Assembly (NCBI GenBank): GCA_030248215.1
Contig: JASANG010000611.1
Span: forward strand, 124,001 to 188,000
Source of the DNA: Enoplolaimus lenunculus
Taxonomy: Eukaryota
Reading direction: 5' to 3'
Length of the DNA stretch: 64,000 bases
A program made the position numbers and the translations under genes. The notes beneath the pieces were generated by a model that had not been told where the DNA came from, searched no databases, and saw nothing but the letters and a program-made list of their open reading frames with translations. Shown here one piece after another: positions 33,201 through 64,000 of this stretch (positions are counted from its first letter, which is position 1; every line of letters begins with the position of its first letter).

Positions 33201-36200
33201 CTAGAGACTTATAATTGGTTTTAATATAGTTTTTTTGTAGCCGTGTGAGCATAACGTACATTATTTTTGTTTCAGGTCGTCCAGAATTTAAATATGTTGG
33301 CAATATGCATGGTAACGAGGTTGTCGGTCGCGAAATGTTGTTAAAATTAGCTGACTATTTGTGCGATCGATACCAACATGGTGACGCGGAAGTGCGCAAA
33401 CTAGTCAATCTGACGTCAATTCATATCATGCCCACAATGAATCCGGACGGATACGAAATGGCGTACCGAATGGTATGTATATATGTCAGATGTGAATGAA
33501 ATAATTTATTTCATTTTGGGTTAATTTGGAAAATTTTAACCAATTGCTTTTCTGTAAAAACCTCTAAATTTTGAAAAACAAAAACCCTGTTGGAATTTGT
33601 TGAACTGTTCCTGTATTTTACTGCAAAATTATTGAGTCCATTTTGATTGTCACTAAATAATACGTATATGTTTCATAGAGCAGCGCTGTTTGGTTCCTAC
33701 TGTCGTGTGGGTGTCGAAATTGTTCGTAGTATGGTTAACTTTGTTTAAGTGGATTGATTCAGCGAACTTACGTGTATATATACTTTCCGCAAAATCCTCA
33801 ATGTACTTGTTCACTTTTTTACTGATTCATGAGTGTATAGGTTGGTTTGAATTTTTTCAGGGTGGTCAAGGTGGCTGGACGCTTGGTCGCGAAAATGCGC
33901 ATAACGTTGACTTAAATCGCGATTTTCCGGATTTGGACAGCTTATTGTTTTATCTCGAGTCGAATGGTGTACCGCGCTATGACCATTTGATGAGCGTATT
34001 TCACGACGAAAGCCGGGTAAGCTTGTGAATGGTGCCAGGTAAGCTTGTGAATGGTGATGTTGATCGATAATGCGGTGCACAATAAGCATTTGAAACCGGT
34101 TGAGGCTTGCCGTAGCATATTTTTACTGGAAAACAATATTTATAATATTAGCCGTATTTCAGTTTAGTCGACTAGATAAAAATTATCGTTTTACAGTTTG
34201 TTATCTATTCTGTGATTTACAAAATTTGATTTTTTAAGTAGCTAGAGTTATGCTGAACATAACGATAATAACGATCACTGGTGATATCGTACTTTTTAGT
34301 GGGAAGCAGTTTTTAAATATGTTTTTTCAAGTAGATACCACTGAATTCTGAGCTGAAATCGGTTCAGTTGTCTAATAAACATTTCGGGGCACCCACGCCG
34401 ACCGCTCCTTATAGCATTACACGGTTTGTTCAAACTTGCTTTTTTTACAGTTATCTCAGTAATACTAATATTATTGTTTATTGTTATAGCATGAACCGGA
34501 AACACGAGCGGTCGGCAGGTGGATTCTGCAAAGTCCGTTTGTGTTGAGTGCAAACTTGCACGAAGGTGATTTAGTCGCAAATTACCCGTTTGACTTGAGC
34601 AAAATCGAAGGCAAAAGCGTTTATTCTAAGTCACCAGATGATAGCACATTTAGGTGAGCGCATAATAAAATACACAATATTATCTTTTGCACCTGATTTT
34701 GTTAACATTTTAGCAGTTCGCTTAACGTTCTAGCTTCAGAAAAAAGTTGCATAAAAACTTTGGAACATATTTTACATTTTTGGAGAGCTTCGTTCACTGG
34801 ACGTTTTTTATTTAACTAAGTTTGCTAATTGTCGGATACAGATCGCTAACCACCATGCTTTGGCAAAAACATTTGCAGAATTGCGTAAAAATTGCACTGA
34901 ACTAGAATTGGAAAATTTTCATATTGTACAACATGCAGAGAATTGTTCAAAAACGTTATTGGAAAACTGTATCCCTAATGTCTGTTTGATTTAGATCTTT
35001 GGCGCTCGCTTGCTTGAAATGATACGTTTTTGGATCCGGTTTGCAAACCATGGGATTGCAAAAATTGTAGACCTATTTATAAAGCAGTGTATTAATAGTG
35101 TTTTATATCTTCTGAAAACTTTGCAAAATGCAAGAAATGCTGGAAATGTATAAAAATGATCATTTTAAACTTTGTCCAAGCAGAGTGGTGTGTATAATTT
35201 AGACACTTGGCGCTTGCTTACTCAACTGAACACACTACAATGGCTGATCCGGCGCGTAAACCATGCGATATGGCGGGCGATGATTATTTTGCGAAACATG
35301 GGGGAATCACTAATGGGGCGCGATGGTATTCGGTTGAAGGAGGTTGGTTTATTTAATGTGTCATGATGTTTAAAACCTGGCATTGACAGTAAGGGAACTA
35401 GTGTATTTATACACACAGTGATCTAGAAAAAATCGTGTCATTAATTGATATAAATCGAATGGTTACAAACGGATCTTTATAAAACATGAAGATTCATACA
35501 GGGGCACACGTTTTTGTCAAATATTGCACATGGAACCTGGGCTATCTTTGTATTCGCTACGCATGCTTATTATTTAGGAGGGTTGTCTTATTGTATTGAT
35601 TTTGTAGCCAATGTTACTTTTAGGGGCGTAACAACAGATTAAGCGTATTCCTAAGCCAAAGCCTAAGGGTTGCAATAATGTGTTCCTACGCCTAAGCCCA
35701 AGCCTAAGCAAAAAATGTAATTTAGAGTCTGAACCCACTTTGCGGAAAATTTTGTTCTAATTTGATTTAAAACGGAGACAGCTTGCAAGATGATCAAGGT
35801 GATTGTAATTGGTCACGGTATAATAAGGTATTACTTTTTGGTTTAGGAATGCAGGATTTTAACTACTTGGCGAGCAATTGTTTTGAAATAACTCTTGAAT
35901 TAAGCTGTCAGAAATTCCCGCCGGCTGAGCTCCTTGAAAACTATTGGAATGATAACAAAAACGCGCTACTTAACTTTATCTGGCAGGTAAGTATTGTTTA
36001 AATTTGAACCGTTTTATAAATTCAACATACGTGGAAAGGTATTTTTCAAAATGTATACACATTACACAGAACATTTTGATTGTAATTTTTAATGCAGCAT
36101 ATGCATACATAGCGAGTGTCAACAGTCTTTCAAGCCGAACAAATTTATTAATTATATGGATTGTGCAGTGTTTTAAATTTTTTTCGTTTCGACAGAAACG

Positions 36201-39485: not shown

Positions 39486-42400
39486 TGCCCCGTTTTCCCA
39501 TTAGCCCGAAACAAACCTGTTTCATTTTCCCACCGAAAAATTGCAGTTGTCCCGTTTTCACATTTGCCCGAATCAGGTCTGTCTTATTGTCCCGCTTTCC
39601 CAGCGAAACAAACCTTTTCCGTTTTCCCAGTGAAAAATTGCAGCTGTCCGTTTTCCCATTTGCCCGAGACAGGCTTTTTCCATTGTCCAGATTTCCCAGC
39701 GAAAAGTTTCCGTTTTCCCATTTGCCGGAAGCAAACCTGTCCCGTTCTCAGCAAAAAATTTCAGCTGTCCCGTTTTCCCAGTTTTCCCAAACAGACCTGT
39801 CCCACTGTCCCGTTTCCCTAGCGAAATTTTGCAGCTGTTTCGTTTTGCTATTTGCCCGAAACAGGCCTTTCTCATTTTCCGGTCAATGTTACCCTAAAGG
39901 CCGTCCATTTTCCCGGGACAGAAATGTACCAGGAGTACCCGTCCCATTTTCCCGGGACAGCAATCTACCAGGAGTACATACAAAAAATATAATTGGGACA
40001 ACGGGACGGATGATACAGTGGGACAGATGAGACAGTTGGGACAGTTTGGACAGATGGGCCGTTGAGACAAATGGAACAGATTGGACAGTTGGTACACTTA
40101 GGACAGATGGGGCAGTTGGGACACATGGGACAGTTGGGACAGGTGGAACAGTCGGGACTAGGACAGTGGGACATCTGGGACCGTGGGTCAGTAGGACAGC
40201 TGGACAGTCCTACTGTCCCATTGTCCCACTGTCCCGCTATCCTACTGTCCCGCTGTCCTACTGTCCTACTGTCCCGCTGTCCTAGTGTCCTACTGTCCCG
40301 CTGTCCTGCTGTTCCACTGTCCCGCTGTCCTACTGTCCCACTGTCCTGCTGTTCCTCTGCCCTACTGTTCCGTTGTCCCGCTGTCCTACTGTACCGCTGT
40401 CCTACTGTCCTGCGGTCCCACTGTCCCGCAGTCCTACTGTCCCGCTGTCCTGCTATCCCTGCCCCGCTGTCTTACTGACCCACTGTCCCGCTGTCCTACT
40501 GTCCCACTGTCCCGCTGTCCTACTGTCTCACTGTCCCACCGTCCCGCTGTCCTATTGTCACGCTGTCCTACTGTCCTGCTGTCCTACTGTCCCGCTGTCC
40601 TACTGTCCTGCTGTTCCACTGTGTCCCGTTTTCCTAGCGAAATTTTGCAGCTGTCTCGTTTTGCTATTTGCCCGAAACAGGCCTTTCTCATTTTCCGGCC
40701 AATGTTACCCTAAAAAGGCCGTCCATTTTCCCGGGACAGAAATGTACCAGGAGTACCCGTCCCATTTTCCCCGGACAGCAATCTACCAGGAGTACATACA
40801 AAAAATATAATTGGGACAGCGGGACAGATGATACAGTGGGACAGATGAGACAGTTGGGACAGATGGGGCAGTTGGGACACATGGGACAGTCGGGACAGTT
40901 GGGACAGATGGAACAGTCGGGACTCGGACAGTGGGACAGCTGGGACAGTGGGCCAGTAGGACAGCAGGACAGTCCTACTGTCCCACTGACCCATTGTCCC
41001 ACTGTCCCGCTATCCTACTGTCCTGCTGTCCCACTGTCCTACTGTCCCGCTGTCCCGCTGTCCTGCTGTTCCACTCTCCCGCTGTCCTATTGTCCCACTG
41101 TCCTACTGTCCCACTGTCCCGCTGTCCTACTGTCCCACTGTCCTGCTGTCCCTCTGTCCTACTGTTCCGCTGTCCCGCTGTGCTACTGTACCGCTGTCCT
41201 ACTGTCCCGCTGTCCTACTGTCCCACTGTCCTACTGTCTCACTGTCCCACCGTCCCGCTGCCCTACTGTCACGCCGTCCTACTGTCCTGCTGTCCTACTG
41301 TCCCGCTGTCCTACTGTCCCGCTGTCCTACTGTCCCGCCGCCCTACTGTCCCGCTGTCCTGCTGTTCCACTGTCCCACTGTCCTACTGTCCCACTATCAC
41401 ACTGTCCCGCTGTCCCACTGTCCCGCTGTCCCGTTTTCCTAGCGAAATTTTGCAGCTGTCTCGTTTTACTATTTGCCCGAAACAGGCCTTTCTCATTTTC
41501 CGGCCAATGTTACCCTAAAGGCCGTCCATTTTCCCGGGACAGAAATGTACCAGGAGTACCCGTCCCATTTTCCCCGGACAGCAATCTACCAGGAGTACAT
41601 ACAAAAAATATAATTGGGACAGCGGGACAGATGATACAGTGGGACAGATGAGACAGTTGGGACAGATGGGACAGTTTGGACAGATGGGACAGTTTGGACA
41701 GATGGGACGTTGAGACAAAGGGAACAGATTGGACAGTTGGTACACTTAGGACAGATGGGGCAGTTGGGACACATGGGACAGTCGGGACAGTTGGGACAGA
41801 TGGAACAGTCGGGACTCGGACAGTGGGACAGCTGGGACAGTGGGCCAGTAGGACAGCAGGACAGTCCTACTGTCCCACTGACCCATTGTCCCACTGTCCC
41901 GCTATCCTACTGTCCTGCTGTCCCACTGTCCTACTGTCCCGCTGTCCTGCTGTTCCACTCTCCCGCTGTCCTATTGTCCCACTGTCCTACTGTCCCACTG
42001 TCCCGCTGTCCTACTGTCCCACTGTCCTGCTGTCCCTCTGTCCTACTGTTCCGCTGTCCCGCTGTGCTACTGTACCGCTGTCCTACTGTCCCGCTGTCCT
42101 ACTGTCCCACTGTCCTACTGTCTCACTGTCCCACCGTCCCGCTGCCCTACTGTCACGCCGTCCTACTGTCCTGCTGTCCTACTGTCCCGCTGTCCTACTG
42201 TCCCGCTGTCCTACTGTCCCGCTGCCCTACTGTCCCGCTGTCCTGCTGTCCCGCTGTCCTGCTGTTCCACTGTCCCACTGTCCTACTGTCCCACTATCTC
42301 ACTGTCCCGCTGTCCCACTGTCCCGCTGTCCCGTTTTCCTAGCGAAATTTTGCAGCTGTCTCGTTTTACTATTTGCCCGAAACAGGCCTTTCTCATTTTC

Positions 42401-43415
42401 CGGCCAATGTTACCCTAAAGGCCGTCCATTTTCCCGGGACAGAAATGTACCAGGAGTACCCGTCCCATTTTCCCCGGACAGCAATCTACCAGGAGTACAT
42501 ACAAAAAATATAATTGGGACAGCGGGACAGATGATACAGTGGGACAGATGAGACAGTTGGGACAGATGAGACAGTTTGGACAGATGGGACAATTTGGACA
42601 GATGGGACGTTGAGACAAATGGAACAGATTGGACAGTTGGTACACTTAGGACAGATGGGCAGTTGGGACACATGGGACAGTCGGGACAGTTGGGACAGTG
42701 GGTCAGTAGGACAGCGGGACAGTCCTACTGTCCCACTGACCCATTGTCCCACTGTCCCGCTATCCTACTGACCTGCTGTCCCACTGTCCTACTGTCCCGC
42801 TGTCCTACTGTCCCGCTGTCCTGCTGTTCCACTCTCCCGCTGTCCTATTGTCCCACTGTCCGACTGTCCCACTGTCCTACTGTCCCACTGTCCTGCTGTC
42901 CCTCTGTCCTACTGTTCCGCTGTCTGTCCTACTGTCCTGCTATCCCACTGTCCCGGGGTCCTACTGTCCCGCTGTCCTGCTATCCCACTGCTCCGCTGTC
43001 CTACTGTCCTACTGTTCCACTGTCCTACTGTCCCGCTGTCCCGCTGTCCCACTGTCCCACTGTCCCGCTGACTTACTGTCACGCTGTCCTACTGTCTTGC
43101 TGTCCCACTGTCCCGCTGTCCTACTGTCCCGCTGTCCTACTGTCCCGCTGTCCTACTGTCCCGCTGTCCTACTATCCCGTTGTCCTACTGTCCCGCTGTC
43201 CTGCTGTTCCACTGTCCCGCTGTCCTACTGTCCCACTGTCCTACTGTCTCACTGTCCCACTGTCCCGCTGTCCTACTGTCCCCACTGCCCGCTGTCCTAC
43301 TGTCCCGCTGTCCTACTGTCCCGCTGTCCTGCTGTTCCACTGTCCCGCTGTCCTACTGTCCCGCAGTCCTACTGTCCTGTCCCGCTGTCCGACATCCCAC
43401 TGTCCCGCTGTCCCA
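39486..43415. repeat. Higher-order tandem array: 4 units (periods about 816, 805, 900 bp), each a conserved ~190-bp block plus (GGGACAG)-type tract plus inverted (CTGTCC)-type minisatellite
   Basis: TAGCGAAATTTTGCAGCTG recurs at 39819, 40635, 41440 and 42340; strand polarity flips at GGACAGTCCTACTGTCC in each unit. Confidence 0.92.
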
Positions 43416-43885
43416 GTTAGGTTGTGTCGGTGGAAAAGGTATTCGATGATATTGTGAGCTCTGGACAATATTGGAGGGCTGTGCCTCCCCAATCTGAACA
43501 TTAGGGGCAAGTGCCTCTGCACCACATTTCCGAAGCCTATGGAGGGCAGGTTGGCAACACTGAGCACTCCCTAGCACACAAACTTCCAACTACTTAAAAA
43601 GCTGAGCTCAATCTCTTGTCTGGAAATCTCTGTACTAGCTCGCACATTTTTACAATCACAGAAATAAACAACGCGATTTATGAATATTTTGCAGCAATAC
43701 GCAATTTCAACTGCAATTTGCGCACACTTTACTGAGCAGCGCAGTCGCACCTGCTTGCGTTGTGTTATTTCAGCTATTAATGTGTTTGTTACGAAGTTTG
43801 TTGCTTCAACTGTTTTGCGTTTGTTTTGATTAGAAAATTTTACGACTAAAACTATAACACATAAACTTTAGGGAGTAAAATTTTC

Positions 43886-44094
43886 GGCCAATGTAAACAA
43901 CAGGCGCGGAACAGTATTAGCATATTCCAAAGCCTAAGCCTAAGCCTAAGCGTAAAGATGAGCATATCCGTAATCGTAAACGTAAGCCTAAGCTTAAGCT
44001 TAAGCCTAAACCAAGCAAAAAATTAATCGAAAGCTTAAGCTTGCTCTATTCTAGTCCCACAAAAAACCTTCTACCCTTGATCTTTACGTGGGCC
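43886..44094. mobile_element. Telomere-repeat-bearing MITE (Merlin-like)
   Basis: GGCCAATGTAAA ... TTTACGTGGGCC; TSD AAATTTTC / AAATTTTT; GCCTAA repeats inside. Confidence 0.75.
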
Positions 44095-47216: not shown

Positions 47217-50157
47217 ATGGATCAGCATTTAAATTGTTCAATGACTATTCGCCGCGTGTTTGTTTCGTTCTTAATCTACTTTTTGCTGGTTACGGTGAAA
47301 CGATTCGATTCGAACAGTTATGCAAACGCGTTAGTTCAAAACGCAACGCATAAAGGGTGTCATGGTCATTTTCGGCCGTCATGCATATGTAATAACTATA
47401 TGATTAATTGTACAAGTACGTTTATCGTAAGTGCCGGATGCAGAATTTTGTGTATATTCTTGTCGGTAGAATACTTTCAATATTTTAAGATTCGCTAATT
47501 GCACAGGACCAAATTTTTTTTCAATTTTTTCTGTAACACCGTCATATCCTTTAACTGGCTAAAAACGCACGTCGCACTACAGATGAATCGTTTGCATCGC
47601 GAGATCTTCAACAAGGCATTACTGATCCGGGATACATATACCAAACATACCCGCTTCCCTTGCTCTGTCACTGCGTATTCGGCTTGTATAATAGACTGAC
47701 TCTCGGACCCTCAGAAATTTACATTTGGTTCCGGTATTTTAATTTACCGGATACTGCTATGAAACGAATATCATCGCCATATATTAAACTTTTATTTTAA
47801 CGGAAAAATTATAATATATTACAGTTGGAGTTTGTTGAAAAGGCACCACTAAATCGGCAAATTAAATAAAATGTGACTAAAACCGCTATTCCACAAAAGC
47901 ATTCATCGAATTGACACTGCGAGCAAAGCTTCAGAGTTTTGCGAAGTGTTTATGTATTGTGTTCGAAAGTCGAAAGGTGGACGTCTGTCCGACCATCCGT
48001 TTGACAGGAATATAATGCACCACTGAATGGATTTTAGTGAACATATTTGTTTGAATGTTTATTATCTTGTGGTGTTAAAAAGTTTTTGGTATCGGAGAAT
48101 TTGTGTAAGGTATTTATAAATCTCTATAAGTGATATCTGAATAGTTATCTATTCACTAATGAGCATAGTCGCTATGCCCACTATGGCAGTTTAGGGAATT
48201 AGCGTAATGGATGTCAATTTTAGAGCAACGTTTATGCAACTTGGGCAATAGGGTTTTCGGCATGGTAAATTTAAATATGGGGCTTACATACCGAAACACT
48301 TGCAAATTAGTTAACTACTAGCTAATTACAACATAATGCATGCTAATTATCGCAACAGGGCTTATGATGTTATTACAATATATCCCATTTCAATATTCAA
48401 GGGTTATGGGCTCAGGATTTTATGACACGGGAAATTCGAATGTGCCTTGTACGGATTGCCACACCAGCTTGTTTGCCTTTTATTATATAATTAGCACATC
48501 AGGTATCCCAGTAAGGTTTGTCGTCTTATTTAATCAGAAGTGAACATCATTAAACAACTGTTACAGGGGGGTTGGGCTTGTGAAAAACAGAACCAACTGA
48601 CTTTGGAATGTAAGTAAGTAGGTCACGCCACGCTACGCTGCTCTCAATAAATATAATTTCACTACAACTGGTAACGATTTACATCTAGCAAGTAATTACT
48701 ATATTTCTGCAATTGCTTTATTTTTGATATATCAATTTCATATCCGGTTCCGAACGGATATTATAGTATGTGGCCCTGATGTGCTGGTTCCTCAACAAAG
48801 TTTGATTGATAGTTACAATTCTAGAATCAGGACCGAAAATCCACAAATAAATAAATTTTGTTAGCCAACACATATAGATACCATATAACGTTGCATGAAC
48901 AACTCGTCGACTCACATTTCTTTACCCGAAATCTTATAGACATGACAATTTGTCGCGTTTAATTAGGCTTAGGCTTCGACAACTGTCGAGCGACAAGTTA
49001 CGGAGCTTCTATGTCGTCGTAAACTTTTATAATGCTTGTTTTTTGTTTCAGATGCAGGTTACAAAGATACTGACGTGTTCTTAGCGCTGTCTCACTATAA
49101 TTTCCCACGTGTCGACACAATCATATTTACAGGCAACAATTTTGGTGCTTTGCCTGCAAACAGCTTATTCGGCGAGGGTGTATCGCATAATTCGTTAACA
49201 TTTCTTGATCTCTCAAACAACAATATCACCGAAATTTATCGTCAAACATTTGCCGGCATGCCACGACTTCAAGAGTTGCTACTCAATAACAATTCAATCA
49301 GTCTTCCGATTCATCGGGACAGCCCATCAAATTCAGGAGCAGCGACATTTTCGCACGCTCCAAAAAATACCGTGGGAATATTCTCAGAAGTCAGTGCAAC
49401 CGTTCGAAAATTGTATTTGAGCGAAGCAATCCGTGACGTCAATAATATTACTCATCAACTCGACATACTTCACGCCATGTTGCAAGAGAGCGCTCTCAGC
49501 CGGCTGGATACGTTAATTCTGTCGAATAACGGTCTTCAGTGGTTACCACCGCGTTTTCTGTGTAGTTTCCCAGCACTCAGTCGTCTATCTCTAGCCGATA
49601 ATGATTTAAATGAATTCACACCCGATTCAGACTGTATCGAGTCTCTGGCAGAGCTTAACTTATCGAACAATAATCTAATTTCACCAAATAGCAATTTTAC
49701 CTCGCTTATTGACACAGCAGCAACACAAACTGGGAACTTGCGAAGTTTAGATTTGAGTGACAACGAATTTGACTGTTCCTGCCCCTTGTTGCATTTTGTT
49801 CGATGGTTTCAATCCTCGCGGCCTTCAAGTGGACCTAATGGTGGCAGCTCTGCAGGCCTTTTAGTGCGCCGATCGGCGGTGACATGCAAAGATGCGTATG
49901 ACGCAAGTTTGATCGGGCAAAAATTGGACGATTTAGAGCTGAACTCGCTCAAGTGTGAGACAAATGGATCACGGTATGTCCATGGCGTATACATTGTCAT
50001 CGGATTAATTGTAGTGGGACTGGTTGTACTTCTTTTGTGCCTTGGTTACGTTAATCGTCGGCTGGTGTGTCAGCAAGTGAACCAAGTGAAAATGGGTACT
50101 ATTGGTGGATATGCGCAACTGGAACGTGAAGCACAAGCTGAAGCTGAATTTGTGTAA
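47217..50157 (+). CDS. Single-pass leucine-rich-repeat membrane protein, 5T4/TPBG-like; exons 47217-47415 and 49052-50157
   Basis: Hydrophobic N-terminus; LRR-NT cysteines (C..RPSCIC..INC); IIFTGNNF; multiple LxxLxLxxN repeats; LRR-CT NEFDCSCPLLHFVRW..C..C; TM YIVIGLIVVGLVVLLLCLGYV; short tail. The phase-1 intron A|GTACGT..TTTCAG|AT fits. The start could be Met 47217 or Met 47241. Confidence 0.88.
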
Positions 50158-51145: not shown

Positions 51146-53064
51146 CTACTATGAATCAGCTTTTGAGACTGCAACGTCTAAAACAATTCCATTCCTGTTT
51201 GCAGAATTTCGAAAATGGAAAAAAATTTTCTCAACTGGTAAATTTATAAAAATTTTAAAGAATTCGGTTTGTAAACCCAAATAATTTCTTTTTTAAATTC
51301 CTTCATTAGGAAGAATGGCTGGAAATTTTGCACCGTTTTGTTCTATCTCTATTTTGACTTCCGATTCTCGCGACACAACCTACCAAACTGAGTTTTGTGC
51401 TGGAGTTAAAATAACAAAACATATAGTGCAGACTGCATATTGTATATCTTGATCGTTTAAACTCTGGATTGAAATAAAAACGTGTATAGCTTCGCCAGTT
51501 TATGAATGGATTATTTAAGATTGGAAATTTTCTATCATGTTTATACTGCAAGAATACCAGACTAAGAGGGCTGACGCTAAATATATGTCGTTCGGCGTCG
51601 GACGCAGGTCAAAAAGTTTTGTTTATAAATTTTCAAGTGGTGCCATGCGGCGATTTACATGCGTTGCGTTACATGTCCGATAGATTCTGCACGGCACATG
51701 ACTGCATTAAAATTGTCAAAAAGTATAGCCCCACCCAAAACATAGTATTTAAACGCAAACATTGTATATAAACATTTTAGATGCACAATCAAACTGTAAA
51801 GGTACCGTTATACTTGTCGCATGGCGTCGTCCGTCACCATACGGCATCTTACGTGAGTAATACGCGCCCGATGCCGCACCGGTACGCACGGTGACGGACG
51901 GCGCCGGACGTCTTCAAAAGAATAAGCGCCACCCTAAAGCTTTAGCAGATTAGAAATATTAACTTAGCTCTTAGTATTATAAATGGTCAAGATAATCGAA
52001 AATCCTAAATACGAATTACAACGTTCTATAGGAAAAGTTCGTTGAATGATGAAATTTTGAGGTTATCAAACCCTTCCCGCACTCAGTAGACTGTGAGCAT
52101 CTCAGTGTAAAACTGTGAACTCAAAATTTGCGATATAAATCGGATCGGTTTCAATCAGATCTGCGATTTAAGGCAGGATCGAATCGAAAATTACGTTTAA
52201 TCGGATCGTTTTATTTCCATATCGAATCGTTTATTTCCATGTTGGATCGATGAATACTCATTTCATACGAATAACCAATGTCACTTCTAAAATACTTTTC
52301 AATACAATTTTCTTTTATTTGCATTGCACTTAGCATTGCAGCGCTTCTGATTTGGCGTTTTGTAATTTTGAAAACTTAAAACTAAACGTGCTCCAGCAAC
52401 ATGGTGTTTACGCAGTTTATTTACCGAATAATCGCCAGCAAGGTGGGCCCCATGTTAATACTTTGAGACCTATCCGTTTACACCCGCCGTGACCCTAGTA
52501 AATATGCAGTGGAAATGCTTAGCATTCAGGCTGGCTGGCATTCTTCTGTGTTTTCTACTGCAGCTGTCGCAAATATGACAAACACTTTAAACATTGCTGC
52601 AATAAAACGCGTATAAAACGAGTTGAGCCCAGTTCTAAATACAAAGAAACTGTAAGCATTGTATTCCATACAGACGCCAAAGGGTGAACAGAGAGGTGTC
52701 TAGAGAATCGCCCCCAATTTGATTTTTGTCAGTCACTCGAGGACGCTGCCTCGTTGTCTCAAGACCCCTGTACTTTAGTCGGTTTTGGGCGCCCCATCAT
52801 CCAAATTTTCCTATATGCCACTAAAACCTCATCGCCTATTAACATTGCACGAGAGTGCCATTTGCGTCTATGTCTTTCGAGTTGATTCGAAAAATGCTTT
52901 AGGATCAGGTTACTTTTCGCTATTGGAGAGAAAAAAATTATTCGGTTTGATTAGCTCAAATAGTATGAACATTGTTTAAGCAACCACTGTGGTAGGCTAA
53001 TACTAAATTGGTGCCTAGAGAGTTATAGTCTTTGGACTTGAACGGCGTCTTGAGCAGTATATAT

Positions 53065-53439
53065 CAGGGTGCAACCAGAGGTGAAAAATCTCGGAGCCGA
53101 AGGTCAACAAAACTTGCCGGACTGGAGGTGAAGTCGGAGGTAGGCGAAATGAAGTAGTTAAAATGATGTTTTAGTTTGTTAATTTTAGCAAATATCTGTA
53201 ATGTGTTGTTATAATTTGATTGGTTTTACGCTTATTTTTTACTAAAAGGGCAATTTTTTGTCAGAATTGTGCCCAAAGTTGAAACAAAACACGCCAAACA
53301 GATAAACTTAGTGAAACTTTGGCAAAATTTCACTACCGAAATTGCCGGAACCTCCTGCAAAAAATTCAATCCGAGCCGGAGCTGAAGGTCGATTTTCTGC
53401 CGGAGCCTGTGCCAAAGGACGACCTCCGGTTGTAGCCTG
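53065..53439. mobile_element. hAT-type MITE
   Basis: CAGGGTGCAACCAGAGG / CCTCCGGTTGTAGCCTG; perfect 8-bp TSD GTATATAT. Confidence 0.8.
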
Positions 53440-54062
53440 GTATATATAAAACAATTTAATGCGATAACAAATTCAGAATTTCAAACAGCATTTACCGAAC
53501 TCTGCCGCTTTTCAACCACCTGGCGAGATTGTTTTATTTTGAAATTTAATTTTAAACCTGATGTGGATTCCAAAAATTTATATACTATGGTTTTGTCTAA
53601 ACTAAAATAATAGTGGCATTTGATTGGTGATTAAATTTGAATAAAGCAGCCAACAACTTAATTTACAGTTTCGTTAATTCATTATGCCATTGGGCACCGG
53701 TTGTTATCAATGATATAAAAGCCAGGCCCGAAAAAGCCGTTAGGGAGACGGGGTACGCACCTATCTAACACATATACTGGCCCATATACTTATGTATTGG
53801 CTATAATTAGGATCGTAATTATTTTCGGGAGTGCTAAAAACATACTTAAACTGAGATAAAGTCGCTAACGTTTGTTTAAGAAATGAAAGCGAGTAAAAAG
53901 CATGTAGCTGAAAACGAAAATTAAAGACAGATGGTCAACAAAAGTTTTCAAAATGTGCTTCTTGGGCCAATATGTATTTACCGTTTCCGGCAAGGTGTGC
54001 AAACGGATAGTAAAAATAACGTAAATGGAAATGGTTAGTGATCAAAATAACGGAAACGGAAA

Positions 54063-54880
54063 GGGGGGTCCCCATTTGGAGTCCCAATCAATAGGAATCC
54101 GTGTCCCTTAGTCAGCAAGCGGACAGAATCCCTAATCTCTAATTAGAGTTTGTAAATATTAATTGACCCTAATTGTAGTGCACAAATCACTCCAGCACCA
54201 AATAAAATTGAGTTCGAAACTTTAGAGACGTGTTTAAGTTTTGAAAGTACATTCATAAGTATATAACCTTGCATTATCTCTCAAGTTTTCGATACAAGAC
54301 AAATTAACGTTTAATTCAACGGATTAGTTGCAATACCGGATATCAGGGTGTAAACGAATAGTAAAAATAACGCTAACAGAACCGGATACTGATCAAAAAT
54401 AACGGAAACGGAAAACGGATATTGAAGTATAAAAGTTTCAAAAAAATTTTTATTTTTGTGCAAACCAAATTGAGGTATGCAAATATTCACCGAGCTTTCT
54501 ATAATTTTACAGAAATGCGTTTTCCATTTGCGTTATTTTTAACCCGTTTACACTATGATACCCGGTAGTGTAACTATCCATTGAATAAACGTTAATTTGT
54601 CTTCTATCAAAAACTTGAGCGATAATGCAAGGTAATATACTGATGAATGTATTTTCAAAACTTAAGTACGTCTCTGAAATTTCGAACTCAATTTTATTTG
54701 GTCATGGAGTCATTTATGTAGTACAATTAGGGATAAGTGACGTTTATTTGTTCTAATTAGGGTTTATAAACTATAACCACTTCCGGATACTTTTTAGGAA
54801 TACGGACTCCTATTGATTGGGACGCAAAATGGGACCCCCTTTCATTACTCTCTCTCCCTCATATTGGAGTGACTACGGTA
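54063..54880. mobile_element. Inverted pair of CTGTAGTG-family MITE fragments around a central GTGTAAACG-TIR element
   Basis: 54063-54341 and about 54560-54840 are imperfect reverse complements; the centre has GTGTAAACG...CGTTTACAC. Confidence 0.65.
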
Positions 54881-55026
54881 CTTGCGTTCAAGCAAAACCC
54901 TGCGAATCAGGATTAGGTTCCCGACTATAAATACAAAAACTTTCAATTGCGAATAGCAGAGACACGTATAACATTAATTTTGGCTTCATTTAACTATTTT
55001 CTCTTTGAAGCAGTCGGATATTGGAA

Positions 55027-58000
55027 ATGCTGAGCACCCTTGTGTCTTGCGCTGGCAACCCATACTGCGACGAATTTTTCGATAATGTGCTCGAAATTAA
55101 CGTCGGCGGGCAACAGTTCACTATTTTACGTTCAAAACTTAAACGTCATCCCAGTGGACGGCTGGAGCGTCTAGCTCAATTACTAGACTCATGCCGCGAG
55201 CTCCAAACCGCCGGACAACTGCGAACACTTCGCGAACACCAAGACGAACTTGAATTTTATTTGATTCGATCATCGAATTCGTGCTCACATCAGTCGCTTT
55301 TAGGCAACAGCAAAAATGTCGGATTTGAAAATAGTGAAAAACTTGCCAATCGGTTGGATCGTAGATCAACAAGTGATTTTATCTATGCTCGCAAGCTGGT
55401 CCACGATCATTCTTCGTTACCGGCACCGTCGTGCGACACAACCCAGTATCAAATATATTTCGACAGACCTGCATCGATGTTCCAGTACATCACCACTTAC
55501 TATCAAACTGGTCATTGTCCACAACCGACACGGCAATGCCTGGTTGCCCTCGCTGAAGAAATTGGCTTTTGGAACTTGCCCACACAAGCTCTATCGCAAA
55601 CTTTCGCTCATCTGTGTCCTTGCGGAAGGCCGTATCCAGGCGGTGGAGTTGCCAGCCATAATCAAGCGTACAAACACACAGTGGCACGCGTATGGCATAA
55701 CCAAGGAAGACCACGATTAAATGTTGCGAAGACAGGCAAGCCATTGCTAGCAAATAGCGCCTGTAAATCAAATAAAAGGCGCAAACCACGTCGCAGTCCT
55801 ATTCCACCACATCAACGAGTCCTTGCCCGGCGATCTAATTTTCGAATACCTATCGAGCATCCGTATGTAACGGTTGGCGGGGTGTCGCCGCAAGTTATGC
55901 GCGGTCCAATGCGCCGTTCAAGCAAAGATCCTCGCCCGTCAGATAGAAATGCGAACTATACAATTAACGCAATCGCTAACATGAATTTCGGTCTGATTTC
56001 GCAACTTGGCAGGAAAGATACTGATAGCATTGGTGTTGCTCGACGGCTGCCTAGTGAAGCTATACTCGATAAGCGACTGATCACAAAGGCGATGTTGATC
56101 CGATCACATCGAGCGTTGAAACAATTTATTTGGGATATGATGGAAGGACATTCAGGAAGCCGGACGTCAGTGGTAAGTTTATTTCGTGTTATAAAGCAAC
56201 TATCTTTTTCTTTGTAACCTTTACCTGAATAAGTAAATACTTGTCACAAACGCTAAATAACGGCCAAGGGCGTGGAGAGAGTACTTAAGGTCAAACCCAC
56301 CTTGTGATTCGTGTACAGGTTTTTTATACAGAAACACTTTTAGTTGGTATCAAAAGAAACCTTAGCTACGAAATTATTATAGCGAATCACATCTCTTGTC
56401 ACAATTCATGGCAAAACCCAAAGGTAACGATGTCATTCGGGGACGCGGGAACGATGTTTCTCGATGGCTGTTAAACAGGCGCCTCTGCAATTTTATTTTG
56501 AACCGGTTCGATAAGAAATCGTACTTTTGGTATGTTATTATCAAGAGTCAAAAGAGAGACAGAGAGTAGATTAAAAAACCTAGCGAGCGAAGCTAGCGAG
56601 AGGCCTGCGCATTTTTTGTATTTTCAAATTCCAAACACTAAATTTTTAGTGTTGGTCTACGTGCCTATTGCCTTTTTAAACAAAAGAACTGGTATATATA
56701 CTGTTAACCAATACTGTTTTGTGTCCCAGCTGTAAATTAATCCGAGAATCGAAACGAACGAATACGTTGATATTCGAACTACAACTATTTTCGTCTTGAA
56801 GTAGTGCAAGCTCCGATAAATTATCATAACCAACCGCAAACTATGTCTTAAAAACTAACAAAAACAAAACTTTATTTATATAGAATTAAATCTGGAACGC
56901 CCCAGATGCATATTTTGGGCAACTTTCCAGTAATTGACTTTCATTGCAATATTTTTTTAGAACACAATCGAGATTGTTCTGTGAAAACAAATTTACATAC
57001 AAATTGTTGTACATTCACCAACTTTCGCGCATTACGCAAAGAAGGCTGACTACTTTATTCAAAGCTAAAAAAACTTTACTTGCAGGCTTTTCAAATCATT
57101 TCAACACTGTTCATTCTACTCAACATCGCGTTAATTGTGCTCGATTCAATCCCAGGCTACCGGTGGACTGAATACATCAACATCATTCTACTTGGCCAAC
57201 TTGACACTGTCACGGACGACAAACATGATCGACGAAGTTTTTCACGCAACGTCACGGCGTTGTTGAGCGAATTGCGCTACAATGAAACTGGCGAATATAA
57301 ACAAATATTCGACGTTGAAGAATCGAGCGGTGTATCGCGTTAGTTTTCAACTGGAGGGTTTGTGGTTTTGGTATACAAGGGCAGCCCTGCATTATTTATT
57401 ATTTCTGTCCTTTCTGGCACCACTCTGCGGCGTTCGGCAACGATAACGAGAGGTGACCATTATCCATTTATCGCGTTATAGTGCCAATGGTATTCCAAAT
57501 TTTGAATTCTGAAACGATTATATTCTATTTCATCACGGCCAGGGCGAGAAATTTTGAGTTTTGATATATGTATTTAGTGGACTCGCAATATTGGTCGTTC
57601 CAATTTGAAAACTAACAGTCAATAATTTTTTGGAATTTGACACTGGTCAGTTGGTCACAATCGTTTATTATTAATATTGAAAATTCAAATAATTTACCTA
57701 TTTCGGTTAAAGTAATTTTTTAATTGTATATTTTTAGGATTCAGGCAGTGTTCAGGTCCGGCAGTGCCTGTGACTGTCTAAAACGTGTTGCAGTTGCATA
57801 TCCCTTAGTTTCATTGCAAATTGAATTGCACTTTGCACTATATTGTCTGCAGTTTCACGGTACCATCCGTTTGATAATTTTTTTGGAATTACACCATACT
57901 CAAAATTCACTATATTGTTGTCTCTTGTACACTTTCCTTCCACATTTTAAGTTAACGCTTATAGTTAGGCTTTGGTGCAAGCTTAGACTTAGGAAAAGGC

Positions 58001-60379
58001 ATATACGAAGGCTCACGCTTAGTTTAAGGCTTAGGTAAGCCTATTTCTATACCTAGCCTGAGACAAAGCCTGAGCCGAAACGTAAAAGTCTAAGACTTAC
58101 CATTAAATGTTCGGCGTAAAAACATGTGTGACGTGGTTGTCCTGGTGTATATGCAATATATGCAATGCACATCACATTGTGTAGTATGGTTGCCGGCAGC
58201 ATACGATCGTCACATATTGTCGACGTTTAAAGCAGTTGAAGAGGCGGAAAGCCGCTGGGTCGATCCCCGCTCTGTAGGTCCGCTTCTCTAGCTGCTTAGT
58301 TAAAAAGGTCTCAAGTCCTGGTTCATACCTAGACTGACACGGCGGCTACGCCGTGAGCGCAATGGTGAATTGCCGCGCTATAAACACGGTATCTAGTCGA
58401 AAATAGGAAGGACGATTAAGGGAAGATCGAATTGAAAATTGGGGTATGTAAACATGTGAGACATCTTGACCTGGTGCATATACAATATATGCAATGCACA
58501 TTGTGTAGTATGCATGCCGGCAGCATACGGTCGACACATACAGTCGACGATAAAAGCAGTTGGAGAAGCTGGCTACGTGGCGCAGTGGTAGAGCTCAGGC
58601 CTCGCAATCCTAAGGCCGCTCGTTCGATCCCCGCTCTGTAGGTCCGCTTCTTCAGTTGCTTATAGCTGATAAAGGGTTGAAGCCCCGGTTCCTACCTATA
58701 CTGTCATTCAGCAAAGTGCGCAACAGCCAACAATAGAAACGCTTTTGGGTCATAGTCAATTCGAGATAAAATATCAAAACTACTCAGTGGCCTATACCGA
58801 AAGATAAGCCTTGACCGTAAGCCTCTGAGAAAAGTGTACAAGAATCATACTGTTTCAGGCATTGGCAATCTTACATTTCGCGACGTAATGACACTACACA
58901 TCATCGACTGTGTATGTATTTCAGTATTTACATTGGAATTTTTACTCAAAGTTTGGTCAAGCCCTAACCGTTGGGCGTATCTTCGACGTCCTTTGGCAGT
59001 GATCGACGTTTTATCAGTCCTTCCGTCGTACATTGAACTAATTATATCATCGTTAATGACCCTAAACGTTCAAGGGCTCAACACTCTGCGTATCCTTCGT
59101 ATTTTTCGTACATTCCGTGTATTTCGCGTGCTTAATATTGCACGATATCAAAGCAGTTTCAAAGTAATCGTACTGTGTATTAAAGATAGTATTCCTGAAT
59201 TTATACTGTTATTTTTTCATTTATTTGTTGCAACTCTACTGTTTGGTAGCGCGTTATATTATATTGAATCAACACAAAAATCGACACCGTTTTCGAGTAT
59301 TCCGGTCGCAGTGTACTGGTCTATTGGTAAGTGCTTAATAAAACGATTACAATGATATCTAAGCCTAAAAGCGTAAGGGTGAGCCTGTTGCTAACCCTAT
59401 GCCTAAGCTTAAGAAAAATGTTAGTCTAGAGCTTAAACTGACTCTATTACAGCCCCGAAGAAAAATCGATCCGGCCTTTCTATACATGGGTCATATTTCT
59501 TTGCTTAAAGATATTCTCACTAAAACTCTTCCAGCACATAGTGATTGGAATTATAAAATTGGATTACTGTTAGGCGTTAGGCGTTTGATTCCGTTGCTGA
59601 ATATTCTCGTCGCAATGTTTTAATCATATTGGAATACGAGTCTTTTTTAAAACATCTCACTCACAAAAAGTCTTGCCTACGACGTGAATGAAACAATAAA
59701 CGACGCAAAGGATTGCGCTTAGTCTTTGGTTTAGGCGTAAAGTTTAGGCGTTGCAAATTAGTAACCAGCGCTGTTGGAGACTTTTTCTTTCTATCAAAAT
59801 GATACTTGAGCGAAGAGAATGTAAGCATTTACAGTCTTTGATCGGTGTTGTAAAACTTTGATTTAACCAAAACTTTGTTTGTTCCCAAAATTAGATCACA
59901 ACATCGTATAAAATATTTTGCAACGGAAACATTGCGCAGGAATTATTACCCTACAGCCGAGTCGGCAAAACCTTTCGTTTTAGTGTTTGAAACTGTTGTA
60001 AATTTTAAATATAACATTTCGGCCTACGACAACAACTTGCCTCAGCCGAAGTCTTTGCCTATGCATAAGCCATAGCGTTAACAGAAATTGTAGAATAAAG
60101 TATACAAGAGCCAATTTAATAACATTTATTTAAAATTTACGCATACTGAGTGTGATCATTTCAGTGACGTATTTCTCGTATGCTGAAACGCAACCAACAT
60201 CAACAGCTGGTAAATTAGTCGCCGCTGCTGCGTCGATATTCGGAATTGTTCTTATGGCACTGCCAGTGAGCGTCGTTGTTGACAAATTTTCATATTATTT
60301 CAAGTTGCATCGCTACGAAATGTTGATGCGAAAACAAAAGCAACACGCACGTCAGTCGTTGAATTTGCCGCGATTCTGA
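55027..60379 (+). CDS. Voltage-gated potassium channel family (Kv, T1-containing) subunit with non-canonical pore; exons 55027-56172, 57086-57329, 58859-59326, 60165-60379
   Basis: T1 (INVGG..HPSGRL..YFDR..YYQTG..EEIGFW); S1 (IWDMME..FQIISTLFILLNI); S2 (CISVFTLEFLLKVWSSP); S3 (IDVLSVLPSYI); S4 (LRILRIFRTFRVFRVLNIARY); S5 (LFGSALYYIE); pore helix (FSSIPVAVYWSIVT); S6 (GKLV..FGIVLMALPVSVVV). An upstream exon is possible and the exon-2 donor (GTGTAT) is weak. Confidence 0.88.
58115..58706 (+). mobile_element. Second, older copy of TRIM family 1 in Kv intron 2
   Basis: LTRs 58115-58339 and 58447-58706; 107-bp interior with CGGCGGCTACGCCGTGAG (58340-58357) and GAAAATTGGGG; TSD TTCGG / TTCAG; GGCTACGTGGCGCAGTGG...GTTCGATCC in the 3' LTR. 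Confidence 0.82.
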
Positions 60380-60460
60380 ACATTATCTGTTAATGCAATG
60401 ATAAACGTTATGCATATGATAAAAAATTTATAGTACAACAGTTGTACTTATAATAAATTG

Positions 60461-60712
60461 GGCCAATGTTATTTTAATGGGCGTAACAATAGATTAAGCG
60501 TATTCCTAAGCCTAAGCCTAAGTGTTGCAAAAACGTATTCCTAAGCGTAAACCTAAGCCTAAGCCTAAGCCTAAGCGTAAGCCTAAGCGTTGCAAAAACG
60601 TATTCCTAAGCCTAAACATAAGCCTAAGCATTAGCGTAATATGGAATCTAATGCTACACTTCTATAGACCCACCAGAAACCTGGACGCACTCCCCTTAAA
60701 GTAACATGGACC
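60461..60712. mobile_element. Telomere-repeat-bearing MITE (Merlin-like)
   Basis: GGCCAATGTTATTTTAA ... TTAAAGTAACATGGACC; perfect 8-bp TSD ATAAATTG; many GCCTAA units. Confidence 0.82.
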
Positions 60713-60942
60713 ATAAATTGTATTTAATATCTTATTGTCTCCACCCTCGGGTCGATGACGCTGTTTTCGCTTGCGGCTAATTTCAAAGAATTGTGTGCTG
60801 CGAATACGATAGAACCATTTTTGCTTAAATTGTTCAAAACAAATTCTATACTAGAATTTTTAAGATTTTACTGGTAACCAAACTTTTTCCATACAATTCT
60901 CGCGGATGTACTACACATCTGAATATTCTGCAAGTACAATAA

Positions 60943-61898
60943 TGGGTCATCCACGTTATACTGTCTACGCTACTGTAAAAAATTGTCCCCACTTACGAGC
61001 CCCTCACTTTGTAGTTGTAGTGTTACTAAATGACATGTCCAAATGTCACCCATATCCTGTATAGACCTTCCGGACAACTCGCATACTCTCCAAACAGCCT
61101 ATACTTTGTCACATTGCCGTCCATACCCATGCTACACTGTCAATGCGTCATATGAAGGACAACTGTTTTGTCCCGAGTCTGTCAGAACAGACTCTGTTTA
61201 GTCATCTAAAGAGTCTGTTTCAAGGGACTCTGTTTTACAGAGTCTGTCTGAAGGGACTATTGTAGAGCTTAATATTGAGTATGCCGCAACCACGGGCGAA
61301 AGAAGGGTGCAACTACCGTTGGGCTTGGTGTGCGACGTTAAAGGGTTCCCACTCGCCCGTCCTCCCCTGGGGGACAACAGTGTAGGGTTCCGGAGCTATA
61401 TACCTACACCCCAGCCGCCGCCCCCCCTCACCGGTCACGACAAAATTTCGACAGGGACACCGGGGTTTAACTTTCTGGTATACCAGAGTTATTATATTCT
61501 AACCTGCTCTGCTTGAATGGGGCGGGTCGTTCTCTTACAAGTTATCTTTTACCGGCAAAAACCTTCCTGCCCCCTCTTTTAAAAATTACTGGTTGCAGTT
61601 AATTTTTAAGAAAGTAAAATTTTTAGAACACTGCAACGTTTTTAAAACAAGCCCTAGTTACGGGCTGTGGACTGTCAACAAGCTCTTTTTCGGACGTCCC
61701 GATGTCAGACACTGTGTCCAGACAGTGTCTAATTTGTCCTTAGTCCCTTCGAAGGGACTACTGCCAAAACGAACTAGCTAGGTACACCTTGTGTAAAGTC
61801 TTAACATTGTAAGAACAATGTCGTTTTGTCCAGCCCTTGAAACCAGGGGTGTGGACAATTTTTTACAGTAGCGTAGACAGTATTACGTGGATGACCCA
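60943..61898. mobile_element. PIF/Harbinger (Tourist)-type non-autonomous element
   Basis: ~45-bp TIR TGGGTCATCCACGTTATACTGTCTACGCTACTGTAAAAAATTGTCC and its near-perfect reverse complement; TAA on both flanks. Confidence 0.8.
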
Positions 61899-62449
61899 TA
61901 AGGTCACTTTTTTTGAAAATGCTGCGTGGTTGACGCTAAAGGGTTTTAAATATTAGTAACTTGTAATCCGTAGTTGCGCACATGTGTAACTCTCCTATTA
62001 TATATAATGGTTTTAGCTTTATGTTTAAGAGCATTTGTTTTTTAAGCAGGTTTTGCCTAAGTTTTGAAGCTTAAGTGACAACTCAAACAACCAAATCATC
62101 ATTTTAATTTATACCGGGTTTATTGGTTCGGTGCTGCATGCGTTCTTAATAAAGGAAAGACAGAACTCGGCATTGCACTCTGTAGTGGAAAATACACTTC
62201 GCAACTTGAGCATAGCTAAGGACAACAGATAAATATGCTATCAATGTCTAATAGAACAACACAAAACATCTAACCAATAATGTTTACTAAGAATATCGAA
62301 ACAACAGTTTTATATATGTCTTTGCAAACTTCTATTAATTTGCATAGTGTGACTTTGCTGGAACGCTGCCCAAAATACGTATGTGGGGCGTTCCACCTTT
62401 TTATATAGATATGAATCGCTAACGCAGTTCTGTCTGCAATCGAACTTAA

Positions 62450-63364
62450 TCCTTTCTCACATGAATATTTTCTATTTCCCCTGAGACCAACTTTTATGCT
62501 AGGATTCGAACTCCAGTGACTGGAGCGGGAGGCATATACCATCACCACTCAGCTATAGGAGCTTGATGCTCGAGCCCGAGGGGGCTTCTCACGTCTTGTG
62601 GTGATTTAGTACTAAGTATACGTGTTGCAATTGTTAAACCACGGTGCGATATCTACTATTTAACGTATATACACTGCGCTGAGTTACTTACAGGCAACTC
62701 AATGTGAGAAGGAATTATAGATAGTAAACTGAAAATTTTTCGCTTTACCCTTTCTCACATGAATATTTTCTATTTCCCCTGATACCTACTTTTATGCTAG
62801 GATTCGAACTCCAGTGACTGGAGCGGGAGGCATATACCATCACTACTCAGCTATAGGAGCTTGATGCTCGAGCCGGAGGGGGCTCTCCCTGACGCTCGAG
62901 CCCGAGGGGGCTCTCACGTCTTGTGGTGATTTAGTACTAAGTATACGTGTTGCAATTGTTAAACCACGGTGCGATATATACTATTTAACGTATATATACT
63001 GCGCTGAGTTGCTTACAGGCAACTCAATGTGAGAAGGGGTGATAGATAGTAAACTGAAAATTTTTCGCTTAACCCTTTCTCACATGAATATTTTCTATTT
63101 CCCCTGAGACCTACTTTTATGCTAGGATTCGAACTCCAGTGACTGGAGCGGGAGGCATATACCATCACCACTCAGCTATAGGAGCTTGATGCTCGAGCCC
63201 GAGGGGGCTCTCCTTGACGCTCGAGCCCGAGGGAGCTCTCACGTCTTGTGGTGATTTAGTGTTATGTATACGTGTTGAAATTGTTAAACCACGGTGCGAT
63301 ATATACTATTTAACGTATATACACTGCGCTGAGTTGCCTACAGGCAACTCAATGTGAGAAGGGG
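62450..63364 (-). mobile_element. Tandem trimer of the tRNA-like-containing piggyBac-type MITE
   Basis: Units at about 62450-62713, 62748-63039 and 63073-63364, separated by the same ~33-bp spacer (ATAGATAGTAAACTGAAAATTTTTCGCTT); TTAA at both outer ends. Confidence 0.8.
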
Positions 63365-63857
63365 TTAACCTCGAGTTTTATACAGTATTGATCGAATCGC
63401 GAAATATGAAAACCTAACAGCCATTTGTAAAATATCAAAGTAAACGAAGCGAAAATAACATCATAGGTTTCAGTCTTGAATCTATTTTAAACACGAAAAC
63501 ATATTTGCAGCTGAACAAAAAGTCAATCTTAAATTCCAGTTCACCAGATCTAATTACAAATCGGCAAACTCCTGTGGTATCATCGACCTGTTAGTGACCA
63601 GGTTTGAACGCTAAATTCAGTAGAATAGAAAAGTGGTATAGGTGCTGTTATAGTACATTTGTGCATCCAGACAGTAGCTTCACTGCGGTTGTACAGCCCA
63701 ACGGCACCTTGCTACCGCTCACTGCGCCTAGAGTACGACTGCAGTCTCGGCCTGCCCTTGAATCATGCTTGCTCAGATAACGCAATAAAATGGACCGGAA
63801 GCGCAAAAAATTTACAACCATTTGTGTTTACAGCATTTGTTTCTGGATAGGAAATTA

Positions 63858-64000
63858 GGCCCATTTATAGAACAGGGCCGGAACAGTAGTACAAGAGTAT
63901 TCCTAAGCCTAAGCCTAAGCAAAAATATTACTCTAAAAGCTTAAACGGACTCTATTATAGTCCCTCCGGAAAACGATCCGGCCCTGTTCTAAACATGGGC
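63858..64000. mobile_element. Telomere-repeat-bearing MITE (Merlin-like), reaching window end
   Basis: GGCCCATTTATAGAACAGGGCCGGA / TCCGGCCCTGTTCTAAACATGGGC; internal CCTAAGCCTAAGCCTAAG. Confidence 0.75.

Follow-up and report, generated by a model that had tools for sequence, protein, structure and literature searches.

Can a gene that keeps the scaffold of a voltage-gated potassium (Kv) channel subunit dispense with the glycines of its selectivity filter? Animal Kv channels hardly ever depart from the glycine-tyrosine-glycine (GYG) signature, which silent subunits retain too. We analyzed a 64,000-nucleotide stretch of contig JASANG010000611.1 from the nematode Enoplolaimus lenunculus (assembly GCA_030248215.1, positions 124,001 to 188,000 of the forward strand; the window hereafter), where an original prediction had pointed at a Kv-family subunit carrying YFSYAE in place of TVGYGD. 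The gene comprises four exons on the plus strand (see the table below), and its joined frame of 690 codons is free of stops, as had been claimed. What it encodes is a Kv scaffold in which the filter has been rewritten selectively: both glycines and the preceding Thr-Val are replaced, and S2–S6 lie within the ordinary Kv range. The predicted product supports the view that the subunit would be unable to build a normal K+ filter, and the gene is, on this reading of its sequence, a descendant of the Kv family that should not be filed as a K+ channel.

The specificity of this change was assessed against 149 reference rows, which had been selected for their similarity to exon 3, a choice that favors S2–S5 scores, and to which multi-repeat proteins contribute several rows each. 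At columns conserved in at least 80% of rows the filter retains two of eight residues, compared with 22 of 29 elsewhere (Fisher p 0.013), and all seven changes at such columns outside the filter are conservative. The regional BLOSUM score of the filter lies below that of every reference row (0/149 as low; z −8.1, with two gap columns scored −4), while the seven other regions remain within the range of their relatives, 17–69 of the 149 rows scoring as low (44 for S6). These counts bear out the proposed departure from K+ selectivity, as do mutants of the first filter glycine. The G379R mutant of Kv2.1 has a dominant-negative effect and is no longer selective (PMC7725922), and Kir3.2 G156S loses selectivity (PMC12658365). 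A separate protein of 1017 residues, P0174, contains two Kv-like repeats that both lack GxG in the pore loop; its loops are unlike the one described here.

The altered filter stands directly behind a predicted splice junction that joins TTG|GTAAGT at 59326 to TTTCAG|TG at 60165, phase 1 to phase 1. As far as sequence alone can tell, this junction holds as originally drawn: the phases are compatible, the peptide reads as written, and the pair agrees with a simple GTRAGT/TTTCAG consensus at all 12 positions, compared with 6–9 of 12 for five other frame-keeping donor/acceptor pairs nearby. Given this splice, the pore loop is indeed two residues short: from the conserved Trp of the pore helix up to the acid of the filter it counts 10 residues, versus 12 in 145 of 149 reference rows (the remaining four are without a GxG-plus-acid motif), and the two-residue gap recurs in HMMER alignments to Kv2.1. 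The shortening is thus conditional on the predicted splice; the loss of both glycines would follow from every splice that uses exon 4, because the replaced residues lie wholly within that exon. The alignment of G-Y-G-D with S-Y-A-E was correct as to the glycines, but its register is not unique, since the deletion can be placed either at the junction or inside the filter, where Y-G is removed and a register like that of cyclic nucleotide-gated (CNG) channels results.

Could another splice restore an ordinary pore? A candidate 6-base micro-exon at 59535–59540 would give W-S-I-A-H-M-T and a 12-residue loop with Met-Thr in register; it would place Ala-His in the pore helix at the conserved Val-Thr and would not restore the glycines. 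The hidden Markov model (HMM) score is 211 bits with this micro-exon and 203 without, and 208 for the other two micro-exon candidates, a gain of similar size being had from any 6-base insert. In post hoc simulations, 76 of 3000 introns held a site scoring at least 10, and 30 of 3000 one that also gave Met; four sites of this kind, likewise counted post hoc, are present on the plus strand of the window. Use of the micro-exon is in our judgement improbable. Rejected were further candidates at 59414–59419, which lies inside a dispersed repeat, and at 59723–59728, with a splice score of only 5/12, as well as a GC donor at 59333 (12-residue loop, but 7/12) and the pair 59318/60151 (12-residue loop, but 6/12 and the conserved Trp lost). 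It is conceivable that the actual transcript takes its pore and S6 from a canonical exon lying beyond the window, exon 4 being a minor or dead alternative; the pore-exon search does end with the window at 64000. Yet among 4206 six-frame segments of the window, which also cover the 3.6 kb past exon 4, a pore-plus-S6 HMM matched exon 4 only (E 9e-13; next 0.15), in line with the earlier claim that the intron holds no alternative GYG exon, and exon 4 combines a perfect acceptor, an open frame and an ordinary S6 with a nearby AATAAA. We regard such a splicing artefact as very improbable. A TTVGLG peptide at 61312 was dismissed as a chance occurrence, with a stop four codons on and no match to the pore HMM.

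The six filter codons are at least seven base changes away from any coding of T-V-G-Y-G-D, the TCG serine being two steps from glycine, and the filter requires ~0.4 changes per site. Under simulated neutral substitution, which omits indels and is hence lenient, the frame was still open in 234 of 2000 runs at 0.02 changes per site, in 13 of 2000 at 0.05 and in 0 of 2000 at 0.1. Because at least seven changes are needed and the frame is open far past this neutral limit, we rejected both an assembly error, which would have had to produce at least seven substitutions plus an in-frame loss and which had been named at the outset as a possible refutation, and an old pseudogene, in which neutral decay deep enough for the filter would have closed the frame.

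The origin of the gene was addressed with a phylogeny, as had been proposed with the original prediction. Kv6.1 records (35–37%) are the best named matches of exon 3 among those listed. Trees drew on a pool of 12 of 120 listed exon-3 matches plus the best 150 of 5937. In a first IQ-TREE run (41 rows, pore-loop columns removed, four Shab-like rows left out), six KVS-type rows were the neighbors of the query (95/74), with a long ctenophore branch attached. The second, from which eight more rows were dropped (two long branches, six redundant ones), lacked the ctenophore branch and united query and KVS-type rows (92/91) inside the Kv2 side (82/89); both placements are unstarred. Five of the six KVS-type rows come from named nematode records; one row (P0276) carries the KVS name, and the rest were grouped by us. 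The query branch measures 1.7–2.2 changes per column, and a topology with the query on the Kv1 side is rejected, if narrowly, by the approximately unbiased (AU) test (p-AU 0.048). By eye, 18 of 33 residues before and in S1, across the exon 1/2 junction, are identical without gaps to C. elegans kvs-5 (PMC3519636, supplement 4), and kvs-1, kvs-3, kvs-4, kvs-5, C32C4.1 and exp-2 form one nematode expansion inside Shab (PMC3519636, supplement 1). The gene probably stems from the nematode KVS/EXP-2 branch of Kv2, with moderate tree support. The original prediction had missed this likely origin, together with the loss of the K5 charge in S4, the T1 insert, the rival micro-exon and the CNG-length register.

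Beyond the filter, the description of S4 and T1 as intact was right only in part. S4 keeps its six arginines (R541, R544, R547, R550, R553 and R559), and Phe487 and Glu490 of S2 and Asp513 of S3 are retained; the K5 position (Shaker K374), which is K or R in 145 of 149 rows, is Asn556. In Shaker, K374 pairs with E293 and D316 and has a part in maturation, which charge reversal blocks (PMC2217201). T1 is recognized by Pfam as BTB_2 (E 1.4e-16, 61 bits against a cut-off of 21.4), with the T1 domains of Shaw and Kv4 as best solved matches, but it carries an in-frame insert of ~80 residues, part of which could be an unrecognized intron (acceptor-like site at 55303). At what we take to be the His/Cys zinc site of Kv2–4 (Shab/Shaw/Shal) T1 domains, the first Cys is kept, the His column holds Pro and the later Cys is displaced. 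The loss of K5, the T1 insert and the zinc-site change fit either a partner-dependent subunit or a relaxed gene. Tyr occupies the W434 position, an exchange found in 8 of 149 rows. The PVS gate is present as described, but is weak as an oddity: its last column is Ser in 20 of 149 rows, and nematode KVS subunits have PIS, PIT or PVS there.

Two further explanations turn on these departures. The gene might be a decaying or recently dead spare copy of KVS type that has so far escaped a stop while its filter, K5 and T1 drifted under relaxed selection. Such decay would account for the missing orthologue and the long branch, for a K5 change that is non-conservative and for the T1 insert, and the open simulated frames at 0.02 changes per site leave room for a recent death. 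The depth of the filter change set against complete closure of frames at 0.1, the concentration of change in the filter and the retention of GT-AG by all three introns, with perfect sites in intron 3, argue against it, and we consider it unlikely. Alternatively, the product could act as a non-conducting voltage sensor or scaffold with a closed pore, in which S4 movement or the basic cytoplasmic inserts would signal to or tether partners. S2–S4 score like those of ordinary Kv channels, ~250 extra codons (T1 insert and T1–S1 linker) stay open in exon 1, and non-conducting roles are reported for Kv2.1. However, the long C-terminal tail of Kv2 has a role of its own, and the ~30 residues that follow S6 here leave no room for such a tail; Pfam detected neither an effector domain nor a cyclic-nucleotide-binding domain over the gene product, and K5 is lost. 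A sensor or scaffold is in our view quite improbable.

The shortened loop might itself conduct. A voltage-gated non-selective cation channel, as homomer or in heteromers, would pass Na+, and perhaps Ca2+, on depolarization. Read without gaps from the pore helix, the loop would have lost a Tyr-Gly pair and would end in S-Y-A-E-T-Q-P, which matches T-I-G-E-T-P-P of CNG channels in length and acid position; Shaker without Y445 and G446, likewise two residues short, is non-selective (PMC2233792, citing Heginbotham 1992), and in the CNG signature of TIGET and ETPP the acid mediates Ca2+ binding (PMC3082925). A Thr after the filter acid is found in only two of 149 reference rows, and the arginines of S4 are kept. 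In nematodes, moreover, a K2P has become permeable to Na+ (PMC11513965), and Nav1 and Nav2 are reported missing from the group (PMC6259924). On the other hand, CNG and NaK channels retain the first glycine after T-(V/I) (PMC3082925), whereas the query has Ala there and S-Y for T-I; the CNG-like register costs 10 base changes rather than seven; acid and Pro are common to ordinary Kv loops, leaving the Thr as the sole extra CNG likeness; splicing through the micro-exon or at a weaker pair of sites would abolish the shortening; and K5 is lost here as well. This is a serious if unlikely alternative. If true, it would be a natural repeat of the Shaker YG deletion in a Kv2-derived, T1-bearing subunit with an acidic loop of CNG length, and would yield a depolarization-activated inward current from a potassium-channel gene in a group reported to lack Nav channels.

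We lean, tentatively and with somewhat less than an even chance in its favor, towards a non-K+-selective regulatory subunit, which would join KVS/Shab heteromers and silence or de-select them. Two features lead us there: the loop has neither glycine, although even CNG and NaK tolerate no loss of the first, and T1, K5 and gate alike suggest a subunit ill suited to forming homomers. A degenerate gate marks 42 of 43 regulatory subunits (PMC6279357). Partners of KVS/Shab type are plausible because KVS/EXP-2 is a nematode expansion within Shab. The protein would be expressed, with its fold under purifying selection. Its P-loop may still fold and pack, with Tyr, acid and Pro kept and the glycines exchanged for the small residues Ser and Ala, but it could not supply the backbone carbonyl cage, which needs glycines. 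The T1 insert, the changed zinc site, the neutral K5 and a gate without P3 would result in poor trafficking of the subunit alone, and the membrane would be reached mainly in heteromers, as with Kv6–9. One such P-loop per tetramer would then lower K+ current or add a cation leak in the manner of Kv2.1 G379R, with less repolarizing current in expressing cells as the presumed net effect. The three mechanisms initially proposed, a modifier subunit, altered selectivity and a repurposed voltage sensor, share the expected absence of a normal K+ filter, and sequence does not separate them from one another. A regulator of this kind would be a genome-encoded dominant-negative or de-selecting subunit, a mode so far known from disease and laboratory mutants; alternatively, a voltage-gated cation channel would have converged on the CNG loop length. 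For the question of whether a P-loop devoid of glycines is able to conduct, the locus provides a natural test case.

Several observations weigh against a regulatory subunit. Known silent subunits retain GYG (PMC4727947), and a filter-less regulator would be without precedent in the literature searched, where no natural animal Shaker-family subunit devoid of the filter glycines was listed. The PVS gate is common to KVS subunits with a normal filter and is no independent sign of silence, and general relaxation would likewise fit Asn at K5, the insert in T1 and the length of the branch. Placement of the query outside Shab is not rejected (p-AU 0.117), and FastTree on a shorter core put it beside a ctenophore row, outside the named groups. 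The orthologue search, also proposed at the outset, was run and found none, with best identities of 39–42%: exon 3 reached 39% at best among the matches listed against longer proteins (247 matches) and 41% among the best 150 of 5937 against all 50% representatives, exon 4 had no orthologue among proteins of 38–123 residues, the only ones compared, and 42 loci on metagenome contigs gave identities of 29–42%. The lineage appears poorly sampled, because the adjacent leucine-rich repeat (LRR) gene likewise has only two matches, at 28–33%, and the orthologue blank therefore says little about the range of the gene.

Table. Features of the channel gene, in window coordinates.
Feature	Position	Strand	Details
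Exon 1	55027..56172	+	382 codons; T1/BTB_2, long basic T1–S1 linker, reaches start of S1
T1 insert	55180..55440	+	in-frame, ~80 residues; 87 residues vs 7 in Shaw T1
Exon 2	57086..57329	+	S1 and long S1–S2 loop; 2/3 N-glycosylation sequons
Exon 3	58859..59326	+	S2–S5, turret, first part of pore helix
S4 basic residues	59089..59145	+	R541–R559; K5 position Asn at 59134–59136
Intron 3	59327..60164	+	838 nt, GTAAGT...TTTCAG, phase 1; dispersed repeat 59396–59490
Candidate micro-exon	59535..59540	+	6 bases, TTCCAG|..|GTGATT, 10/12 splice score; predicted only
Exon 4	60165..60379	+	completes pore helix; altered filter, S6, short C-terminus and stop
Altered filter YFSYAE	60170..60187	+	codons TAT TTC TCG TAT GCT GAA
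S6 gate PVSVVV	60263..60280	+	Ser in place of P3, as also in KVS and Kv6–9
AATAAA	60452..60457	+	73 nt past stop; weak, abuts repeat

In the gene model, the true 5' end of exon 1 is uncertain, the frame being open from 55009, and the weakest splice site is the exon 2 donor (GTGTAT). Exon 3 matches Pfam Ion_trans (E 2.6e-24), with Kv2.1 as its best solved relative (E 6e-25), and its predicted structure, in which the filter is not included, is helical (mean predicted local distance difference test score, pLDDT, 73; predicted template modeling score, pTM, 0.43); the best solved relatives of exon 4 are Kv1.2 chimeras. ESM Atlas matches are limited to generic BTB_2 and Ion_trans clusters, and Rfam yielded nothing beyond one weak chance match within 53000–64000. 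Intron 2 contains a dispersed repeat with an internal duplication (58120–58706), 70–79% alike to an inverted copy at 24600–25218, and within it a tRNA-like stretch at ~58570–58640, seen by eye and not called by ARAGORN, which may be a short interspersed nuclear element (SINE). A second dispersed element, with degenerate TTAGGC arrays, lies at 3370–3584, 35607–35710, 43883–44038 and 60455–60716. Across the window the hexamer TTAGGC, which nematodes use as telomere unit, occurs 46 times and GCCTAA 39 times, in part as several arrays; together with acceptors of the TTTCAG type and the lean of the protein towards a nematode clade, this makes a nematode the probable host on sequence grounds. Other repeats are a nested tandem array at 39500–43450, with at least four copies of ~800–900-base units composed of G+C-rich repeats of 9 and 16/24 bases, and a 325-base tandem repeat at 62564–63365 (2.5 copies, 95% matches). 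The LRR gene, 5 kb upstream of the channel (49033–50157, plus strand), is a single exon of 374 codons with a Pfam LRR_8 match and a C-terminal membrane segment, and resembles TPBG/5T4-type proteins. Further plus-strand features include OATP/SLCO transporter exons (1329–5602), a divergent ionotropic-receptor-like gene represented by two open frames (16744–19135; the first matches Lig_chan-Glu_bd below cut-off, E 2e-6, the second is without a Pfam match) and an M14 carboxypeptidase exon with a weak Pfam match (33657–34028). On the minus strand, ARAGORN called a tRNA-Ser(CGA) at 25657–25728, which at 72 bases is short for a serine tRNA and may be repeat-derived.

Among known systems, nematode KVS-1 to KVS-5/EXP-2 come closest: they share the layout of T1 and six transmembrane segments and form the nearest clade in both IQ-TREE runs. 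With kvs-5 the query has in common, by eye, the EGHS..AF.IIST motif before S1, and with KVS subunits an S4 ending in ARY and a gate without P3. In contrast to the query, the KVS pores seen, kvs-5 and exp-2 not among them, keep T-x-G-Y-G-[DE] and a 12-residue loop; K5 is basic in KVS, and there is no 80-residue T1 insert. Vertebrate silent Kv5, Kv6, Kv8 and Kv9 (KvS) and cnidarian regulatory subunits resemble the query in their Kv2-side placement and in an S6 gate whose P3 is replaced by a hydroxyl residue (PMC6279357). Unlike the query, KvS subunits keep GYG (PMC4727947; also row P0002), and Kv6.1 did not group with it in the second IQ-TREE run.

The loop itself recalls CNG channels (TAX-4, CNGA1–3), NaK2CNG and Shaker delta-Y445/G446, with which the query as predicted shares a length two residues below that of Kv and an acid ahead of T-x-P. 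The CNG filter T-(V/I)-G-E-T-P-P and the query's S-Y-A-E-T-Q-P are of the same length and identical at three of seven positions, but the glycine is lost in the query, which moreover is without a C-linker and cyclic-nucleotide-binding domain and has T1 and a Kv-type S4. Any likeness to CNG is convergence. Kv2.1 G379R and Kir3.2 weaver G156S share with the query a replaced first GYG glycine, by Ser in weaver as in the query; they are single pathogenic changes in normal channels, whereas the query carries a fixed multi-site rewrite. C. elegans UNC-58 is likewise a natural nematode descendant of a K+ channel with an atypical filter, but it belongs to the two-pore family and keeps GYG (TCGYG), and its function has been measured (PMC11513965).

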